A program made the translations under genes and the position numbers. Shown piece by piece: positions 3,382 through 12,232 of a stretch of 64,000 nt of DNA. Source of the DNA: Escherichia phage vB_EcoM_DE16; the sequence record OP595145.1, one strand, 5' to 3'. How positions within the stretch are numbered: position 1 is the first letter of the stretch; the number at the start of each line of letters is the position of its first letter. Under the pieces are notes generated by a model, which worked only from the letters and a program-made list of their open reading frames with translations, was not told where the DNA came from and did no database searches.

Positions 3382-6300
3382 ATGGCAACATTCCCAACAT
3401 ATCCAGCAACGTCTCTCGAACAGGGCGTAGACCTGGTTATTTTCTCATCTAACCAACTCCATGATGTTATTAATGGAAGTGCTACAGAGAGTATTGAAAC
3501 AGAATCAGGGTTGATACCAACCCTGAGAAAAGCCCTTGTTGACAACTTTTTCTTTAAAAGCCCATTGGATTGGGCGCAAGGCACAAACGAAACAGTTTTT
3601 AACCAACTTCGTTATTTCCAGAATGGAGTATTGAGCGGTTATTACTATGCCCCTAACGCTACATTGGTTAACCCAATCCCTATGCAAGGGACTCCAGTAG
3701 GAGATAACAACTGGGTATTGTGGGGACTGAAAACAGAACAATTAGCAACAGAAGTCACCCCGTGGGTATACTCTGGTGCAACGGGTTATGAAACAGTAAT
3801 TAGTCCTCCTTACATCTTTGATAGTGCTATTGTTACGATCAATGGTGTTATTCAGGTTCTGGGGGAAGCTTTCCGTATAGAAGATAGTAAGATCATCTTA
3901 TCTGAACCTTTGGGACACGATCCTGCAACAGGACTACCAAACAAGCTTTTTGCTTATATTGGTAAAATCGTAGCTTCAGCAGATACAGATCCTAATCTAG
4001 AGAACCGTCTTGTTAGTTTAGAAACAAAAACGGAAGAACTAACAGAAAGCATGGATAAAGTCCCTCTGCAAACTATTGCTCGTAAATATGGTTTGTTAGA
4101 TGATGAGGTGGCTTACGCAACAGCAGGTCAATCGTTAACAGGGATTAAAGCTCTGTATGATCCAGTAGCACAGTCTTCCTACACATTACCTCCTAACATC
4201 ACAGGAACTTTAACATCCTTGTCTGTTTCTGGAGTAATGACTTATTCTGGGGGGTCTGTAGATCTTTCTGCACTAGCTGTTGAACGTGGACAGTTTGTTC
4301 ATTTGCCTACAAGCTTTGGTAATAACGTAACTCTGACAGCTAAAAATCAGACGATTGGACGTGGTGCTGGTCGTTATCGTTGGGCTGGAAGTTTACCAAA
4401 AAGTATTTTGGCTTCTGATACATTGGAGACAAGCGGTGGATTAGGTCCAAATGCATGGGTTCTGACCAATACAGAAGGACTGTTAACCCCTCGTGGTGGA
4501 ACATACAACGATTTATTCGATGTTGTCTACTTGTCAGAATTTGCTAACAACACAACAACATATACCACACCAGAAGCAGCTTTCCAAGCGGCACTGTTAG
4601 CAGCAAAAGCTTCGAAAAGCAAGATTCTCGATGCTTACGGTTGCGATATGACTTTCACGACAAGCTCTTTTGATATTCAAGGTATCACTTTGCGTGGGGG
4701 TGTGTTCCGTGGTCAACGCGACTATCGTGTGCAAAATGCTACAGTAGAAGGCACAACTTTCCGTAACTCTCGTGTTATGTATTGGGGTGGTGCTGTGCGC
4801 ATGTTCGATTGTTTGTGGGACGGTGCTCCTCGCGCAGGTCAAGTTGGTAGCTTGGTATTCCAAGGCAACCCAATATCAGGTACTTTTGAAATTGATAATT
4901 GTACTTTTAAAAACGGGTTATACGGCATCCTTCAACAAGGAACAGGGGAACCAGTAACACGTGGTGTCTTCCGTAACCTTACCTTCATGGACATGCAAGG
5001 TGATGCAATAGAACTGAACGTCATCAATAAACATTATGACGATGGTTGTGTGATTGAGAATATTTACCTGTCTAATATCGATGGAACTAATGCTCCTATT
5101 CCTCTGTCCAACTGGGGTATCGGTATTGGTGTAGCTGGTAAAGGACCATATGGTTACGGAATCCCTGATGATCAATATTGTAAGAATATTACAATTCGTA
5201 ACGTTTTTGCAAAACGTTGCCGTCAGATTGTCCACGTAGAAGTTGGTCGTAATATCTCTATCGAAAACATTCATGGCGATCCAGACCAGACTGTATCTGT
5301 TGGGACAGGTTTGGCAACTGGCGCAGTTGTAATGTATGGAAGTAAAGATTTTACGATTGATGGTGTTTATGGAGAGCCTAAAACAGACGGTAGCACACTT
5401 GCAAGTAATATCCGTATGATTTATTTGGAGTGGGGAACTAACGCAGTTCTGGACGAAGAGGGTAATCCGGTAGTTCCGGCACAGGGCAGACCTTCAAATC
5501 CATGCTTTAACTATTCTGTTCGTAACATTCACACCAAAACTGGGCGTGTTTTTGCGGGAGTTTCCGCTGGGCCAGGTTATGAAAACAGAGTTAGCTTTGA
5601 AAATATTCGTTGCGCTGCATTGCAGTTGTTCGGTATAGCTTCTTGGCTTTCAATGTCTAACATCACCTGTAATATCTTCGATTGTGTTGGTCAACCTGAA
5701 TCTGGTCCAGGGACATTTTATGATGGATTCTTCCGTAGAGAAAAATCTGTTCTTGAAATGGTTAACGTAAACTGTTACCCAGATGGCAAGACGATGGTTA
5801 CTGGTCGTCCACAGTGGAGCCGTTGCCGTTACTCGGATATTCATCGTGTCAACTGTAATGTTGAAGCTAATATGTATACCAATATCGCAGGTGGTATTGG
5901 AGCTATTGTAGGGACAACGGGCAAAGTTTATTACTTAGAGCCTAATCCTAGTCGAAACATTGATGGAATGCATTTCCCAACAGGGAAAGAGTTTGACAAA
6001 GGGGATATGATAGTCAAGGCGGATAATACGTTCTTCCTTGTAACAACAAGTGGGGCATATATTCCAGATATCCCAGCTTTCGGTATTCGAGCTACACAGG
6101 CAGGAGATACCTTCCTGACACAGAACTTGACTCCTAACGGGACAGCAACAAATGCTTCTTGGTTGTATCATTACCCTCTGTCAGCAGGGACACGTATCCG
6201 TATTCCTGGTGCTGGTGTAGGTGGAGCAGATTTGGACACAGTTATTACTCGTGCACCTTATCAAGATAATGATACGTGGACTAACCCAGTTAAAATAGAC

Positions 6301-6435
6301 ATTGCAGATCCAATTGTAACGCCTACAAGTGCTGGAGTTAGAATTAAAACCATACCTAATGATTCCAGTAATGTTTCTGTAGGTAATACTGCGGTTATTC
6401 GCCCAACGCCAGTAGTAGATGTGCCAACAACCTAA
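3382..6435 (+). CDS. tailspike/tail fiber protein with beta-helix-like repeat core (possible depolymerase)
   Basis: 1017 aa; AAGGGG RBS; recurrent N-I-x-I/V-x-N and Gly-rich turn motifs (NITIRNVFAKRC, NISIENIHGD) as in parallel beta-helix spikes. Confidence 0.5.
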   Translation: MATFPTYPATSLEQGVDLVIFSSNQLHDVINGSATESIETESGLIPTLRKALVDNFFFKSPLDWAQGTNETVFNQLRYFQNGVLSGYYYAPNATLVNPIPMQGTPVGDNNWVLWGLKTEQLATEVTPWVYSGATGYETVISPPYIFDSAIVTINGVIQVLGEAFRIEDSKIILSEPLGHDPATGLPNKLFAYIGKIVASADTDPNLENRLVSLETKTEELTESMDKVPLQTIARKYGLLDDEVAYATAGQSLTGIKALYDPVAQSSYTLPPNITGTLTSLSVSGVMTYSGGSVDLSALAVERGQFVHLPTSFGNNVTLTAKNQTIGRGAGRYRWAGSLPKSILASDTLETSGGLGPNAWVLTNTEGLLTPRGGTYNDLFDVVYLSEFANNTTTYTTPEAAFQAALLAAKASKSKILDAYGCDMTFTTSSFDIQGITLRGGVFRGQRDYRVQNATVEGTTFRNSRVMYWGGAVRMFDCLWDGAPRAGQVGSLVFQGNPISGTFEIDNCTFKNGLYGILQQGTGEPVTRGVFRNLTFMDMQGDAIELNVINKHYDDGCVIENIYLSNIDGTNAPIPLSNWGIGIGVAGKGPYGYGIPDDQYCKNITIRNVFAKRCRQIVHVEVGRNISIENIHGDPDQTVSVGTGLATGAVVMYGSKDFTIDGVYGEPKTDGSTLASNIRMIYLEWGTNAVLDEEGNPVVPAQGRPSNPCFNYSVRNIHTKTGRVFAGVSAGPGYENRVSFENIRCAALQLFGIASWLSMSNITCNIFDCVGQPESGPGTFYDGFFRREKSVLEMVNVNCYPDGKTMVTGRPQWSRCRYSDIHRVNCNVEANMYTNIAGGIGAIVGTTGKVYYLEPNPSRNIDGMHFPTGKEFDKGDMIVKADNTFFLVTTSGAYIPDIPAFGIRATQAGDTFLTQNLTPNGTATNASWLYHYPLSAGTRIRIPGAGVGGADLDTVITRAPYQDNDTWTNPVKIDIADPIVTPTSAGVRIKTIPNDSSNVSVGNTAVIRPTPVVDVPTT

Positions 6436-6496: not shown

Positions 6497-8521
6497 ATGA
6501 ATTTAACAAGACCTAATAGTGCGATAGCCGATCTGGTAGAAGCTACTTATCGAAAACGTCGCAGCTTTGAGGCAGGTTTTACATTACGTAATTCCCGTGA
6601 AGTTTTGCTGTTAGCAGCAGAAGGGAATTATTACCAATGGAAAGGAACTTTTCCTAAAGTTGTTCCAGCAAACTCTACGCCAGCCACCACAGGTGGTATT
6701 TCTTCCCTTGCATGGCAAAGTGTTGGGACCGCTGATGATATAGCAATTATCAATGCCAAGTTTACAGCAATGCAGCAACAGATTGATGATCTGTCGGAAA
6801 CAATACCTGAAGCTGGTAAATCGGCTTATCAGATCGCACTTGATAATGGTTTTGTTGGAACAGAAGCACAATGGCTTGCTTCTTTGAAAGGGGATACTGG
6901 TGCTCAACTTAATATTAAAGGATCATTAGCAAGCACTAGTGAACTACCATCCACAGGTAACGTTGCAGGGGATGGTTATATCGTAGGTGATGTAATCTAC
7001 GCTTGGGATGGTTCTGTTTGGAAACTTATTTCTTCTCTTGGGCCAGAAGGTAAATCAGCTTACGAGGTATGGTTGGCAGATGGTAATACAGGATCTGTTT
7101 ATGATTTTCTTACCTCTATAAAAGGTGATAAAGGTGATGTTGGTCCTACAGGGCCACAGGGAGCACCTGGTGTTAACGCCAACGGTTTTGATTATCGTGG
7201 GGATTTGCCTTCTACAAGTAACTTACCACAACCTAACTCTGAAAACGTAAGCCAAGCTTATTCTATCAATGGTAATCTTTATGTCTCTAATGGGACAGCT
7301 TGGGTCAACATGGGTAATATTGTTGGTCCTCAAGGTCCACAAGGTGAGGCAGGTAAAGACGGTCTTGATGGAACAGATGGAGATGAAGGGAAATCTGCAT
7401 ATCAAAGTTGGCTGGATGCTGGTAATGAAGGGACAGAAGTAGATTTTATTGCCTCACTTAAAGGTCCAAAAGGAGACAAGGGTGATCAAGGAGAGCGAGG
7501 TCCACAAGGTGAACTAGGTCCACAAGGACCAGTGGGTGCAACAGGATCAGGTTTAGAGATTATCGGGGTTCTGAACAGTGAAGCTGAACTTCCTCCTACT
7601 GGAGAAGTAGGTGATGCATATAAAATTAATAATGATTTGTATGTTTGGATTCAAGATGCTACGGAATGGATGAATGTTGGCAGTCTTGGAGGAACATCAA
7701 TTACAGCTAAAGGTCATGTTCCGAACAGTGAAGCTCTCCCTGTTTATAATAACTATGGTGATGCCTATTTAACTGAAGACACTAGTAATCTTTACATCTA
7801 TACCTACGATCAAGACACCAATTCCGCATCTTTTGTTGACATGGGAAGTATTAAAGGCGACAAAGGTGAAAAAGGGGATAAAGGAGATAAGGGTGATCCT
7901 GGAACAAACGGAACCAACGGTACTGATGGGACCAACGGTAAGGACGGCGCACAGTGGTTTGTAGCAACAACTAATCCAGTTGCAGGAGACGGTGTTATCA
8001 ATGATTACGCTTTCAACACTACCACTGGAGCAGTGTTTAAGAAAACAGATTCTTCTACATGGACACTTATAGGAACTCTTCCTAGTATACCAGAAGCACC
8101 TCAAGACGGCTTGACGTATGGTCGTTCTGATGGGAACTGGATCGAAATATCAGGATCAGATCCTACAGAAGCTATAACACCAACTAAAGTTACAGCAGGT
8201 TTCATGGAACTTGAAACAACTACTGCCAACTCTGGAGCATCTTGGACTCCTTCTGGAACTTCCAATATGTATGTTGTTACAGTAACTGACGCTCTGACAG
8301 TTGGAGCATGGCCTGGTGTCACTGGCTCTACAAAGCCTAAAGCGTTTTCAGCAATGATTTATTTGATTCAAGATACAACGGGACACACGGTTACACTAGA
8401 TGCGTCTTATGGAGCACTGAATGATACAGAAATAGCAACTACTGCTAACGCAGTAACAATTTTGCAATTAACGTATCCTGGTGTGGGTGATATCGTGGAC
8501 ATGGTTGTTGTAACACGATAA
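6497..8521 (+). CDS. tail fiber protein with collagen-like Gly-X-Y repeats
   Basis: 674 aa; several G-X-Y runs (GDKGDVGPTGPQGAPG; GPQGPQGEAGKDGLDGTDGDEGK; GPKGDKGDQGERGPQGELGPQGPVGATG; GDKGEKGDKGDKGDPGTNGTNGTDGTNGKDG). Confidence 0.6.
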   Translation: MNLTRPNSAIADLVEATYRKRRSFEAGFTLRNSREVLLLAAEGNYYQWKGTFPKVVPANSTPATTGGISSLAWQSVGTADDIAIINAKFTAMQQQIDDLSETIPEAGKSAYQIALDNGFVGTEAQWLASLKGDTGAQLNIKGSLASTSELPSTGNVAGDGYIVGDVIYAWDGSVWKLISSLGPEGKSAYEVWLADGNTGSVYDFLTSIKGDKGDVGPTGPQGAPGVNANGFDYRGDLPSTSNLPQPNSENVSQAYSINGNLYVSNGTAWVNMGNIVGPQGPQGEAGKDGLDGTDGDEGKSAYQSWLDAGNEGTEVDFIASLKGPKGDKGDQGERGPQGELGPQGPVGATGSGLEIIGVLNSEAELPPTGEVGDAYKINNDLYVWIQDATEWMNVGSLGGTSITAKGHVPNSEALPVYNNYGDAYLTEDTSNLYIYTYDQDTNSASFVDMGSIKGDKGEKGDKGDKGDPGTNGTNGTDGTNGKDGAQWFVATTNPVAGDGVINDYAFNTTTGAVFKKTDSSTWTLIGTLPSIPEAPQDGLTYGRSDGNWIEISGSDPTEAITPTKVTAGFMELETTTANSGASWTPSGTSNMYVVTVTDALTVGAWPGVTGSTKPKAFSAMIYLIQDTTGHTVTLDASYGALNDTEIATTANAVTILQLTYPGVGDIVDMVVVTR

Positions 8522-8525
8522 CAGA

Positions 8526-8549
8526 AGCCCCGAAAGGGGCTTTCTTTTT
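8526..8549 (+). terminator. rho-independent terminator
   Basis: AAGCCCC-GAAA-GGGGCTT hairpin followed by TTCTTTTT. Confidence 0.65.
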
Positions 8550-8562
8550 ATGGAGGGTTTAA

Positions 8563-11235
8563 ATGTTTCCAATTCCAATATTTACTATTATGACCAGCAC
8601 TGGTGTCGTTCCTCTGCCAGCAGGTATTGTTAAAAAAGTAATTACTTTAGATTACCCAGATAACGCTGGTAATTCTAACAGCAGTTTAGCAATTTTGCTT
8701 AATGATGGTAGATTGTTTACTCAAGGCGCAAACCTCTTTGGTGAGATTGCAGATGGAACTCGTAGTGCACGATTCAATAATTTCCACTTAGCTTCTACTG
8801 TAGTAGCAGATGTGTTTACCGCAGATCGTTGTTTTGTTATTAAAACTAACAGTGGGGGATGGCAATATTCAGGATTGACAGCAGGGTTGGTAGGATCTAT
8901 AGCAGCAGGTGGTACGGATGCATGTGTAACTACTTGGACCAGCTTTCCATCTGTAATAACAGGGACTATTTCTTTAGCCAATCTTAAAGAGGTTAAAGGA
9001 GGGTATAACAATACTCTCTGGTTAATGAATAGTGGTGTTCTTTATGGATCGGGTCAAAACACAGTAGGCAGTTTAGGTGCAAGCACTACTAACGAAGTTT
9101 CTACTCCTCGTCAGATAACAAGCGCAGCAGTTGCTTTTGATGCAGGTTACAACCAATGCTCTTATGTCAACAATGTGGGAACCTTGCGTGTTTGTGGAGC
9201 TAGTAAAGGTTTAGCAGGTAATAATAACACAACAACCGCTTTTGTCAATGCCAAGATATCCACTACTGAAACAGTGTATGTCAAAGATTACATCAATACA
9301 GTTTCCCAGACAATAGTTGTAGGAGATACCTCCGGTGGTACGGGTACGGTAAACTACTTATATGTTAGGTCTAATACAGAAACAACCTACACTAAACTGG
9401 ACACCTTTGCAGCAGGTTTCTCAACATGGAAGTTTCCACCAAGCCGCCACTCTTTTTTCGTTGGGATCAATAATTCCTTGTGGGCTATTGGTAAGAACTA
9501 CACTGCAAACTTAGGTTTGGGGTATGATTCTGCGAGCGGAGATCCGCTTCAAGTGGGAAAACCAGTTAAACCTGAAGGAGTGGGTTCCTGGGATATAAAC
9601 AAGCTCACAAGCGTTCATACGCTGAATATGGATGTTACTAACCAATTAGGTTATCAAGGAACCTTTTTCGTTTATAACGGGGATATGTATTATTCCGGTA
9701 TTTGGAAAGATGGGAAAGCCTCGTATCTGTTCAATAGTGGTTTAAACTATAATAAATTCACACCAATAGCAAGCTCTGTGATTACAGGGGATGTGCTGGC
9801 AACTAGCTTAACTACAGATTCTTTAGGAATTTGTATTGTAGGTGGAACTAAACAGTTGACGCATTCTGTTAGCCCAGAAGGAGGTAAACTTTTCAATATT
9901 AAATACACTTCTTCTGCCCCTGCAAACATGACAATATCATCTACTGGTTTAATGACTTTCCATGCAGAAGGTGGTTTTGATGCAGGTATGACAGCCTTAA
10001 ACGCTGAAGGAACAACTTTATCAGATACCTCTGGAGGATATGCTTCAACATTAAGTGTTTACACCCCTAGCTTATCTGCGATGGATGTAGGAACAACACA
10101 AACAATGGTAGCAGAAATAACGCCAACAGGGGCAGCAAGCTTACCTGGTATGGTTGTTGAGTATACAACTACAGATCCTAATGTTGCTACAGTAGATCCT
10201 ACAACTGGTGTAATAACTGGTGTTGGTGATGGTGGTTGTAGAATTGGTTGCACAGCTACGTATCAAGGTGTTGTTACCGCTTCTGATAGTTCTTATTTAA
10301 CGGTGAACGCTGTTGCGGGAAAGGAGTTAGCTCCATCTCCGAGTAGTAGTTTAACGGTTCTAAACGGATATTTCAACCACTCGGCAGATGGGGCAATCAC
10401 GTTCCCAATTTTATCGGGTACTGTCACACCAGCTAACTTTGTAGTTAAGGTGGATGACGTTGTAATACCTTCAAATAAAGTAATATTTAGAAATAAAGCT
10501 TTCTCTACAGTGGATAGTTATCCAGCAGGAGAATATAGACTGGCTATTGAATTTGCAAGTGCTTCAGTAGTGAATAGTGTTGATGTGTCTATGGAAGCAA
10601 ATCCAGATCTTTTAGAATTATGGGGCGGCAACAGAATTGGTTATTCTACAAGCCCAGCCTCACAATTCTTAAAAGGTTGTGCTAACTTAAGACGAATAAC
10701 TTCTGATTGTTTTAGTAACACATCTTACACCGGAACATCTATAAGTGGTATCTTCTCTGGCTGTACAAGTTTGACAGCTATCCCTGAAGGATTATTCAGT
10801 GATGCTTTATTTCCTTCAATGACAACAATGTCAAGCACGTTTGAAGGTTGTACATCTTTAACATCTATTCCTTCAGATTTATTTAAGAATCTGTCAAAAG
10901 TTACAAGATATTCTTACACCTTTAAAGATTGCACCTCTCTTGCAGAAGTTCCAGCAGGAATGTTTGATAATATTCCAACGAAAGTGACCTCTTTAACAGC
11001 TACATTCCAAGGTTGTTTAGCACTTACAGATTTTAATAAAATCTTTAATGACAATCCAGGGTTAACTGTTTGTGGTAAACGTGGATCATTATCTTCTTTC
11101 TTTAGTGGATGCACAAATCTTACAGGAACAGGAACAACATTAACAAATACATTAGGCGGAGTAGCTAATAGTTACCTATTCAGGTATTGCACAAAACTTT
11201 CTGATTATAATAATATTCCTTCGGGTTATAAATAA
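8563..11235 (+). CDS. tail fiber / receptor-binding protein with Ig-like segment and C-terminal BspA-type LRR-like repeats
   Basis: 890 aa; GGAGGG RBS; C-terminal ~200 aa carry at least 5 copies of F-x-G-C-T-S/N-L-T-x-I/V-P-x-x-L/M-F. Confidence 0.5.
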   Translation: MFPIPIFTIMTSTGVVPLPAGIVKKVITLDYPDNAGNSNSSLAILLNDGRLFTQGANLFGEIADGTRSARFNNFHLASTVVADVFTADRCFVIKTNSGGWQYSGLTAGLVGSIAAGGTDACVTTWTSFPSVITGTISLANLKEVKGGYNNTLWLMNSGVLYGSGQNTVGSLGASTTNEVSTPRQITSAAVAFDAGYNQCSYVNNVGTLRVCGASKGLAGNNNTTTAFVNAKISTTETVYVKDYINTVSQTIVVGDTSGGTGTVNYLYVRSNTETTYTKLDTFAAGFSTWKFPPSRHSFFVGINNSLWAIGKNYTANLGLGYDSASGDPLQVGKPVKPEGVGSWDINKLTSVHTLNMDVTNQLGYQGTFFVYNGDMYYSGIWKDGKASYLFNSGLNYNKFTPIASSVITGDVLATSLTTDSLGICIVGGTKQLTHSVSPEGGKLFNIKYTSSAPANMTISSTGLMTFHAEGGFDAGMTALNAEGTTLSDTSGGYASTLSVYTPSLSAMDVGTTQTMVAEITPTGAASLPGMVVEYTTTDPNVATVDPTTGVITGVGDGGCRIGCTATYQGVVTASDSSYLTVNAVAGKELAPSPSSSLTVLNGYFNHSADGAITFPILSGTVTPANFVVKVDDVVIPSNKVIFRNKAFSTVDSYPAGEYRLAIEFASASVVNSVDVSMEANPDLLELWGGNRIGYSTSPASQFLKGCANLRRITSDCFSNTSYTGTSISGIFSGCTSLTAIPEGLFSDALFPSMTTMSSTFEGCTSLTSIPSDLFKNLSKVTRYSYTFKDCTSLAEVPAGMFDNIPTKVTSLTATFQGCLALTDFNKIFNDNPGLTVCGKRGSLSSFFSGCTNLTGTGTTLTNTLGGVANSYLFRYCTKLSDYNNIPSGYK

Positions 11236-11237
11236 GA

Positions 11238-11266
11238 AAAGGAGCCATTTGGCTCCTTTCTTTTAT
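11238..11266. terminator. bidirectional rho-independent terminator between convergent gene blocks
   Basis: AAAGGAGCC-ATTT-GGCTCCTTT hairpin flanked by A-run and T-run; lies between plus-strand stop (11235) and minus-strand stop (11300). Confidence 0.65.
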
Positions 11267-11299
11267 TCAGCATTCAACCTCACACACTTGAAACAAACC

Positions 11300-12232
11300 T
11301 TAGAAGCAATGCAGGAAGTTTCGACCATATTGCAGTCCAATAGGAGCAAATGGAATATCATCGTCGAAGTCCATTGGAGGTTCTTCTTGATTACTTGGAG
11401 TTGGTTCTGGTTGTGGTTCAGGCTTCTTAACTTCTTTCTTCTCTTCTTTCTTAGGTTGTTCTGCGGAACCACGAATGGCAGCAGCAACTTTATCAGACAG
11501 AGCCAGAACTTTACGAGCAGAGTCAATCAGATCTTCTACAGATACAGTCTTAATGGTATGGTCTTTACAAGCATTGAGAATAGCGTGACCAACAGATGCC
11601 CCAAGATCATAATCATTAATATCAACGCCACGAGATTCAGCAATTTCCGATTTCAGCGTGACAGTTGCAGATTGAACAACCCCAGCGATATCGAAAGCAT
11701 CACCTTTAACACCATTACGAATCAGTTCCAGTGCACCATTTACTGCGTGACCAGTTTCCAGACCTACAGTATCACGTTTTTTATAGGACTGCTTAGGAGC
11801 AGCATCGTTGGAACCTTTATTGCCAGAAGATTTGTTAGACTTCTGAACACCATCGGTAGACAATACTGTAATACGAGATTTTTTAGTATTGTAGTAAGTT
11901 TTACCGCCTTTATTATCAACGCGATCAATATCAATACTTACTTCTACACCTTTTTCAATAGTGATCCAATTATCACCTTCTTTGACTTGCAGGTTTTCAT
12001 AACCTTCTTTCAGTTCAATGTCACCAAGAGAAATCCAAACACCTTTCTCATCTGGTTTAGCACCTTTCTCTTTCAGAACAAGAGAAGCTCGGTGAGTTGA
12101 AACAATCGTTTTTCCTTCCCAATGAAAAGTTTTAGGTTCAGCGAATTTATCCAGTTTAACGTAGTCTACGATACCAGTTGCATAAGTTACGGTTTTGCCT
12201 TTACGATCAGTTTCAGTATTAATTACGGACAT
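11300..12232 (-). CDS. SSB-like protein carrying an E. coli SSB C-terminal tip motif (PMDFDDDIPF) followed by a 15-aa extension
   Basis: 310 aa; AGAGGAG RBS; acidic Pro/Glu-rich linker then MDFDDDIPF; N-terminal domain not recognisable by eye. Confidence 0.45.
   Translation of the reverse strand: MSVINTETDRKGKTVTYATGIVDYVKLDKFAEPKTFHWEGKTIVSTHRASLVLKEKGAKPDEKGVWISLGDIELKEGYENLQVKEGDNWITIEKGVEVSIDIDRVDNKGGKTYYNTKKSRITVLSTDGVQKSNKSSGNKGSNDAAPKQSYKKRDTVGLETGHAVNGALELIRNGVKGDAFDIAGVVQSATVTLKSEIAESRGVDINDYDLGASVGHAILNACKDHTIKTVSVEDLIDSARKVLALSDKVAAAIRGSAEQPKKEEKKEVKKPEPQPEPTPSNQEEPPMDFDDDIPFAPIGLQYGRNFLHCF

Follow-up and report, generated by a model that had tools for sequence, protein, structure and literature searches.

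An exchangeable leucine-rich-repeat module at the C-terminus of a tail protein of Escherichia phage vB_EcoM_DE16

Results

The tail protein gene and its setting

We analysed a stretch of 64,000 nucleotides of Escherichia phage vB_EcoM_DE16 (OP595145.1; hereafter the window), and within it the gene of a tail protein that a first-pass annotation had described as a tail fiber with a BspA-type leucine-rich-repeat (LRR)-like C-terminal domain. The open reading frame (ORF) lies exactly where that annotation had placed it (8563-11235, plus strand, 890 aa). Its C-terminal module is a diverged LRR subtype that is missed by curated models, and it forms part of a cassette that is exchanged, at a precise junction, between related phages. 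The features of the locus are collected in Table 1.

The DNA of the gene region was found over its full length, at 96-99% identity, in 33 phage records, including those of the Phapecoctavirus members 536P1, ESCO5, tuntematon, Mt1B1_P17, AV125 and AV126; this sequence comparison places the window in a Phapecoctavirus genome (Stephanstirmvirinae; E. coli myovirus, ~150 kb). The protein matched the PHROG family phrog_11922, "tail protein", with 1347.5 bits (residues 1-890 aligned to positions 1-867 of the 870 in the profile), and its orthologue is gp118 of Mt1B1_P17 (YP_009987043). In that phage, genes for a baseplate wedge, a baseplate protein, a tail fibre, a tail fibre assembly protein, a lipoprotein, a colanic-acid-degrading protein and a tail fibre lie upstream on the same strand, and genes for a single-stranded DNA-binding protein (SSB), a nucleotidyltransferase and a DNA polymerase lie downstream on the opposite strand; the ORF layout of the window matches this arrangement. 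The tail protein gene is the last of a co-oriented cluster that comprises baseplate genes, a short fibre, a chaperone, a colanidase and a collagen-like fibre, and its positional counterpart in Justusliebigvirus bears the annotation lateral tail fibre. The protein has been named TfpM1, with a length of 890 or 891 aa, in a study that noted variation of its C-terminus and did not mention leucine-rich repeats (PMC12695924).

Table 1. Coordinates of the features at the tail protein locus, in positions of the window
Feature	Position	Strand	Remarks
Terminator-like hairpin and T-run	8524..8543	+	Consensus scan and sequence; GC-rich
Shine-Dalgarno sequence GGAGG	8552..8556	+	6 nt before the ATG; read from sequence
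Coding sequence, 890-aa "tail protein" (TfpM1; phrog_11922)	8563..11235	+	Stop codon included; ATG start
RCC1-like beta-propeller, residues 1-400	8563..9762	+	Conserved in all alleles
Two Big_2 immunoglobulin (Ig)-like domains, residues 411-584	9793..10314	+	End at the conserved junction ...SSYLTVNAV
Exchangeable cassette	10315..11337	+	Residues 585-890, stop codon, bidirectional terminator and last 38 nt of the SSB gene
Beta-sandwich, residues 598-686	10354..10620	+	AlphaFold models; travels with the LRR
Seven-repeat LRR solenoid, DUF285/BspA type, residues 695-890	10645..11232	+	
LRR repeats R1 to R7			Residues: R1 695-722, R2 723-751, R3 752-778, R4 779-806, R5 807-838, R6 839-864, R7 865-890
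C-terminal cap (R7), residues 865-890			CTKLSDYNNIPSGYK
Bidirectional terminator-like hairpin in the gap to the convergent SSB gene	11238..11259	both	Consensus scan
SSB gene, convergent	11300-12232	minus	310 aa

The C-terminal repeats form a diverged leucine-rich-repeat module

The seven repeats lie in the last 188 residues of the protein. Their anchors are L703, F731, F760, F787, F815, F847 and F873, and successive anchors are 28, 29, 27, 28, 32 and 26 residues apart. Each contains the core [F/L]xxCxxL, which reads exactly F..C..L in six repeats and L..C..L in one. When the whole protein or its last 206 residues were shuffled (20,000 trials), the mean number of matches was 0.06 and the maximum 2, and the observed count was reached in 0 of the 20,000 trials. 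In register, the repeat reads x-V-T-x-h-x-x-x-F-x-G-C-T-S-L-T-x-I-P-x-x-L-F, where h is hydrophobic. The first-pass annotation had counted at least five copies of the consensus F-x-G-C-T-S/N-L-T-x-I/V-P-x-x-L/M-F. Scored on its 11 specified positions, R2 and R3 reached 11/11, followed by R4 (9/11), R6 (8/11), R1 (6/11), R5 (5/11) and R7 (4/11); the count thus holds for the core motif, with its seven repeats, and fails for the full consensus, which is perfect in R2 and R3 only. The repeats are barely detectable at the DNA level and are therefore old, rather than recent, duplications. Between 10600 and 11240 no clear PARCEL-type dyad was seen in the strongly diverged repeat DNA; inverted pairs were limited to two weak ones (12-16 nt, 75-92%), alongside short direct matches. 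Residues S726, S728, T755, S757, R782, S784, S810, T812, S842 and S844 are predicted to lie on the concave face. In a descriptive look, across 13 related sequences, for variation enriched at concave-face positions, variable positions alternated with the conserved core.

In searches with LRR profiles, the protein itself stayed below the curated cutoffs. Neither the protein nor its C-terminus matched Pfam LRR_5 (PF13306, cutoff 27.7 bits) even at E <= 10, and the scores for DUF285 (PF03382; 13.5-16.9 bits against a cutoff of 25) and for the NCBIfam "PARCEL repeat" model TIGR02167 (17.4-18.3 bits against a cutoff of 30) were below threshold. Taken alone, these sub-threshold scans would wrongly suggest that the module is not an LRR, a conclusion that was overruled by its relatives, by profiles and by an alignment of alleles. 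A phmmer search with residues 585-890 returned 200 relatives (E-values down to 1e-55), including proteins with DUF285, and among 70 aligned relatives LRR_5 was matched in 22 and DUF285 in 20, with a best E-value of 3.4e-100. The consensus of the relatives reproduced both the repeat of the window protein and its C-terminal cap, and the family profile matched solved LRR structures (5a5c, 2.1e-25), including the BspA-type structures 4fs7 (4.9e-19) and 4gt6 (1.5e-17). Furthermore, this phage protein has an allele with canonical DUF285 repeats, scoring 132.8 bits on DUF285, to which the module could be aligned in register (BLASTP 9e-8; hhalign E 1.2e-5 at a probability of 81%). A cap-like motif, W.RAG..GYP, was seen at both ends of one further protein (P0010).

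The solenoid expected from the first-pass annotation was also predicted by structure modelling: residues ~690-890 of the full-length model form a curved solenoid with one short beta-strand per repeat in a parallel sheet. The LRR superfamily is recognised by tandem repeats of 20-30 residues with a hydrophobic/Cys/Leu pattern, and the module has seven such repeats with a period of 26-32. The LRR fold and superfamily are therefore well supported by the relatives, the profiles, the alignment and the model, and the module is a diverged LRR subtype that the curated models missed. The designation "BspA-type" is correct at the level of the superfamily; the repeats, of 26-32 residues, are nearer to DUF285/PARCEL than to the 23-residue BspA/LRR_5 unit. 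The proposal that such a module is unusual among the fibres of the window was borne out, as the LRR family profile matched no window ORF other than 8563-11235.

Domain anatomy of the 890-aa protein

The protein consists of four parts, namely the propeller (residues 1-400), two Ig-like domains (411-584), a beta-sandwich (598-686) and the LRR solenoid with its cap (695-890). A full-length AlphaFold model had a mean predicted local distance difference test score (pLDDT) of 85.7 and a predicted template modelling score (pTM) of 0.54, the latter as expected because the domains are strung along a chain. On the basis of sequence profiles and modelled secondary structure, residues 1-400 are an RCC1-like propeller: Pfam RCC1 (PF00415) was matched with 23.9 bits (cutoff 21.7) and WD40_RLD with an E-value of 9e-11 but a score below its whole-domain cutoff, and the propeller family profile matched the RLD of HERC2 (1.9e-13) in the PDB, followed by UVR8, RCC2 and RPGR. 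In the model, residues ~8-400 are all-beta with four-stranded blades. Residues 1-20, conserved although the confidence of the model is low there, may serve for docking; M1, P3 and P5 are conserved in all relatives.

The Ig-like stretch that had been noted upstream of the repeats was recovered both by profile and in the model. Big_2 was matched in two stretches, with 35.3 bits (cutoff 22.8) at residues 505-565, and Ig strands were modelled at residues 415-582, as two Ig domains within 411-582. This region (411-584) is 65% identical to phi92 gp152 and is common to the lateral tail fibre genes of Justusliebigvirus. The beta-sandwich that follows had no match of its own in the Pfam scan; at its place, bacterial relatives have a PKD-like domain (VDWGDG...H.Y..G.Y.V.I).

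The description of the protein as a tail fiber was appropriate in that its gene is the last of the fibre cluster, and inappropriate in that the domains are globular, without fibrous repeats or Tail_spike_N. A Pfam scan of the protein revealed no collagen, coiled-coil, beta-helix or Tail_spike_N signal, hence no known anchor and no trimeric fibre repeats, and the monomer model showed confident globular domains; because these signals are absent, the protein is not a classical trimeric fibre. Tail_spike_N is present in both fibre proteins encoded upstream, one of which also has collagen repeats. Tail_spike_N (TSP1/gp66-type) is a domain used in branched receptor-binding complexes. It lies internally in the colanidase (3382-6435; residues 302-361) and N-terminally in the collagen-like fibre (6497-8521; residues 12-77).

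The C-terminus is an exchangeable cassette

Comparison with ESCO13 delimited the cassette. In blastn alignments, identity was 97% up to position 10313, no similarity was found from 10314 to 11337, and identity was 98% from 11338 onward; correspondingly, the proteins were 98% identical to residue 584 and unrelated beyond it. The cassette has a GC content of 36.6%, lower than that of the 5' gene portion (40.7%) and of the ESCO13 cassette (44.0%). At the same gene position, the phAPEC8/ESCO13-type allele (891 aa) and bas61_0035 of Justusliebigvirus share residues 1-584 with the window protein at 98% identity. Residues 585-891 of the ESCO13-type allele, whose phiWec carriers are flagella-dependent (PMC12548472), had no Pfam match and no BLASTP or hhalign similarity to LRR or DUF285 modules.

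We found the LRR-type cassette in 35 phage records, among them phiWec188 and phiWec190 (88%), and the ESCO13/phAPEC8-type cassette in 61, among them the Justusliebigvirus lateral tail fibre genes (~91%). The LRR allele is the same gene in tuntematon, Mt1B1_P17 (gp118), ESCO5, AV125/AV126 and phiWec188/190, and the protein of the tuntematon cluster is 99% identical to that of the window. These records are annotated as "tail protein" or "hypothetical protein" only, and no searchable paper was found that pairs "leucine-rich" with Phapecoctavirus. A full-length protein search showed at least four states at the ...SSYLxVNAV junction, namely the window LRR type, the ESCO13 type, a PKD-like domain with canonical DUF285, and no cassette at all. 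Window-type cassettes were found down to 57% identity, and the cassette-less relatives (565-573 aa) occur in related genera. The canonical-DUF285 allele (P0141-P0145, from contigs of ~151-157 kb) has the same propeller-Ig scaffold and junction, followed by a beta-sandwich or PKD-like domain and an LRR-type array; its repeats follow the textbook DUF285 pattern FNQdis.Wdvs.v.nMs.MF, with ~25% identity to the window module. P0141 and P0132 have a common backbone and different cassettes.

The module also occurs on other N-termini. In P0002 it is present without the propeller; a 216-aa ORF upstream of P0002 was considered as a split-off N-terminus and ruled out, as it is not homologous. In P0001 (396 aa, in frame; L005 6001-7191, a 21.4-kb Logan contig of SRR10359460) the module is joined to a Tail_spike_N anchor. 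This protein consists of the first 74 residues of the collagen-like fibre and residues 567-890 of the tail protein (window ~6719 joined to ~10261), with loss of the remainder of the fibre gene and of the propeller and Ig part. The junction shows imperfect microhomology (CAA-A/G-GTGTTG-GG/TT-ACCGCT), and the longest k-mer common to both sites is 8 nt. Both features disfavour an assembly collapse, and P0001 is probably a real deletion variant.

In diverged carriers the cassette was 89-92% conserved, compared with 76-81% for the propeller and backbone, which points to lateral spread or strong constraint. Relatives of the module were found in bacterial chromosomes, including surface proteins of gut bacteria, and in phage-like contigs.

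On its downstream side the exchange reaches into the neighbouring gene, as the last ~13 SSB codons (11300-11337) lie within the cassette, and the SSB, of 310 aa in the window, is 295 aa long in ESCO13 and L005. In Mt1B1_P17, a 434-bp insertion (L001 11718-12151; window ~11280) with the annotated endonuclease gene JR327_gp117 is located between the tail protein gene and the SSB gene, just within the swappable cassette; the window lacks it. A homing-type endonuclease at this site could promote cassette exchange.

Regarding the flanking signals, the ESCO13 record has an annotated ribosome-binding site at the same place as GGAGG. The upstream hairpin sits in the 41-nt gap between the stop of the collagen-like fibre gene (8521) and the tail protein gene, and, judged from the sequence, may be an attenuator of read-through that keeps down expression of the cluster's last gene. 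A 283-aa ORF with a TTG start (11249-12100, plus strand) is antisense to the SSB gene, has a low-complexity translation and is almost certainly not a gene.

The gene was also present in MG065650.1 (Campylobacter phage B15; 93% identity), in OR584014.1 (Pseudomonas phage PsgM04F; 88%) and, as the ESCO13-type allele, in OP562383.1 (Acinetobacter phage ABPW7; 99%). The hosts named in these records look doubtful, unless the host range is unusually wide.

Comparison with other LRR proteins

A similar layout of virion anchor, Big_2 Ig and BspA-type LRR was found in gp35 of Klebsiella phage ST16-OXA48phi5.4 (1008 aa; L003 3523-6549), which is 33% identical to window residues 705-886. This protein comes from a temperate P2-like phage and has Tail_P2_I as its anchor, in place of the RCC1-like propeller; unlike the LRR of the window, its Tail_P2_I, Big_2 and LRR_5/DUF285/LRR_8 matches are all above the Pfam thresholds. 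As a P2 gpI-like protein, gp35 is an independent example of a phage baseplate protein that carries an LRR. By tblastn, 7-8 matching places were seen in the ST16-OXA48phi5.4 record and in its relative Kp4848-1.

In the internalins of Listeria, an LRR solenoid and Ig-like spacer domains make up a surface-recognition module that binds host-cell proteins. They differ from the window protein in LRR subfamily and domain order, no close sequence relationship was found, and InlK was among the weak Foldseek matches. The bacterial BspA/DUF285 proteins are secreted or anchored, whereas the window protein is phage-encoded and its resemblance to them is confined to the repeat domain. Roeske et al. (2010, PMC2996958) defined the PARCEL/DUF285 repeats, which a 2020 jumbo-phage paper (PMC7765460) reported as not described in phages before. 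A 30-kb phage-like contig (L010 6590-9419) also contained two neighbouring DUF285-type paralogues, of 426 and 472 aa, next to a protein with a faint BACON-domain match and an RNA ligase.

Discussion

We consider it probable that this protein is a baseplate-associated modular adhesin, the exchangeable LRR tip of which attaches to a component of the envelope and so influences adsorption and host range. The protein would be a string of globular domains, probably monomeric, in which the propeller and the two Ig domains are a constant scaffold that presumably holds it on the baseplate or the fibre network. The part after residue 584 would be a cargo cassette, here comprising the beta-sandwich and the seven-repeat solenoid. 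The solenoid, which belongs to the same superfamily as the bacterial BspA/DUF285 surface adhesins, most likely binds an E. coli envelope structure, and this binding would tune adsorption and host range. Cassettes would be swapped via recombination, with the ...SSYLxVNAV junction on one side and the inside of the SSB 3' end on the other. We infer the presence of the protein in the virion, its monomeric state and N-terminal anchoring, the binding of a ligand by the LRR and the effect on host range.

The first-pass annotation had proposed the LRR tip as the likely host-range determinant, and the precision of the cassette swap, together with a receptor correlation in the literature, makes this plausible. 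Phages phiWec179, phiWec181 and phiWec186 need flhD and waaT, and phiWec188 and phiWec190 need yhaH and waaT (PMC12548472, Table 2). By sequence, we assigned the former three to the ESCO13 type and the latter two to the LRR type. The association between the allele and dependence on flagella or yhaH is a correlation only.

Several observations weigh against this reading. The protein and its C-terminus fell short of the curated LRR models, and the Pfam scan detected neither a known anchor nor trimeric fibre repeats. The cryo-EM study of phi92 does not place gp152, and no virion evidence was found in the proteomics literature on O177, rV5 and phAPEC8, the O177 paper being without mass spectrometry and the rV5 data not being assignable to the homologue. 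The phiWec correlation is confounded, as TfpL also differs between the two groups, and YhaH is unlikely to be the direct ligand because it is an inner-membrane protein. Both alleles occur among phages isolated on E. coli K-12, and therefore the LRR module is not needed to plate on K-12. Moreover, the relatives of 565-573 aa indicate that the C-terminal cargo is dispensable in some lineages, and a cassette that is more conserved than its backbone would be unusual for a fast-evolving receptor tip.

The last three of these points would equally suit an accessory adhesin that does not select the host, in which the Ig and LRR domains stick weakly and reversibly to common glycans, mucus or biofilm matrix and would only raise encounter rates, as has been proposed for Hoc-like Ig decorations. 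The presence of Big_2 Ig-like domains, and of chromosomal surface proteins of gut bacteria among the closest relatives of the module, is also consistent with such a role. We regard it as unlikely, however, since specificity modules show this pattern of clean and repeated replacement at a single junction, here seen in at least two lineages, and since the host factors needed by the phiWec phages differ with the allele (PMC12548472).

Another reading is a reversed polarity, with the LRR docking to virion components or recruiting another fibre and the propeller as the exposed, ligand-binding end. The propeller and Ig region is conserved across genera and the C-terminus is swapped for unrelated folds or absent, a pattern that sits poorly with essential docking by the C-terminus; the module also occurs on different N-termini, and phage receptor-binding proteins are normally anchored N-terminally. 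Although LRRs are classical protein-protein interaction modules, beta-propellers are able to bind ligands, and the N-terminus has no recognised anchor while both neighbouring fibres have Tail_spike_N, we find an internal role of this kind improbable. A late soluble or cell-associated protein, acting for instance on the surface of the infected cell or blocking superinfection, would fit the terminator-like hairpin that precedes the gene and the lack of virion proteomics or structural placement, but is very improbable given the "tail protein" annotation in PHROG and RefSeq across the family, the homologous N-terminal and Ig regions inside tail or lateral tail fibre genes of rV5-like, PVP-SE1-like and phi92-like phages, and the co-orientation and tight packing of the gene with the fibre genes.

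With the modular adhesin as our preferred reading, a wider proposal can be made, which we regard as doubtful in its full extent: DUF285/BspA-type LRR solenoids would be widespread monomeric receptor-binding modules of phages, passing as cassettes between the adhesins of gut bacteria and the tails of phages, and in Phapecoctavirus/"Wecvirus" the swap to the phAPEC8 type would switch between flagellum and yhaH dependence. To our knowledge, no experiment has established the LRR as a fold with which phages bind receptors.

The gene and its allelic variation were already known, and databases already label many uncultured-phage proteins as BspA-like or LRR; what is new is the recognition of a common Phapecoctavirus allele as an LRR missed by curated models, together with the exact boundaries of the cassette. 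Phapecoctaviruses are among the coliphages with the broadest host range in cocktails for therapy and biocontrol (PMC10844046), and residues 585-890, with the junction ...SSYLTVNAV, offer a unit for engineering.

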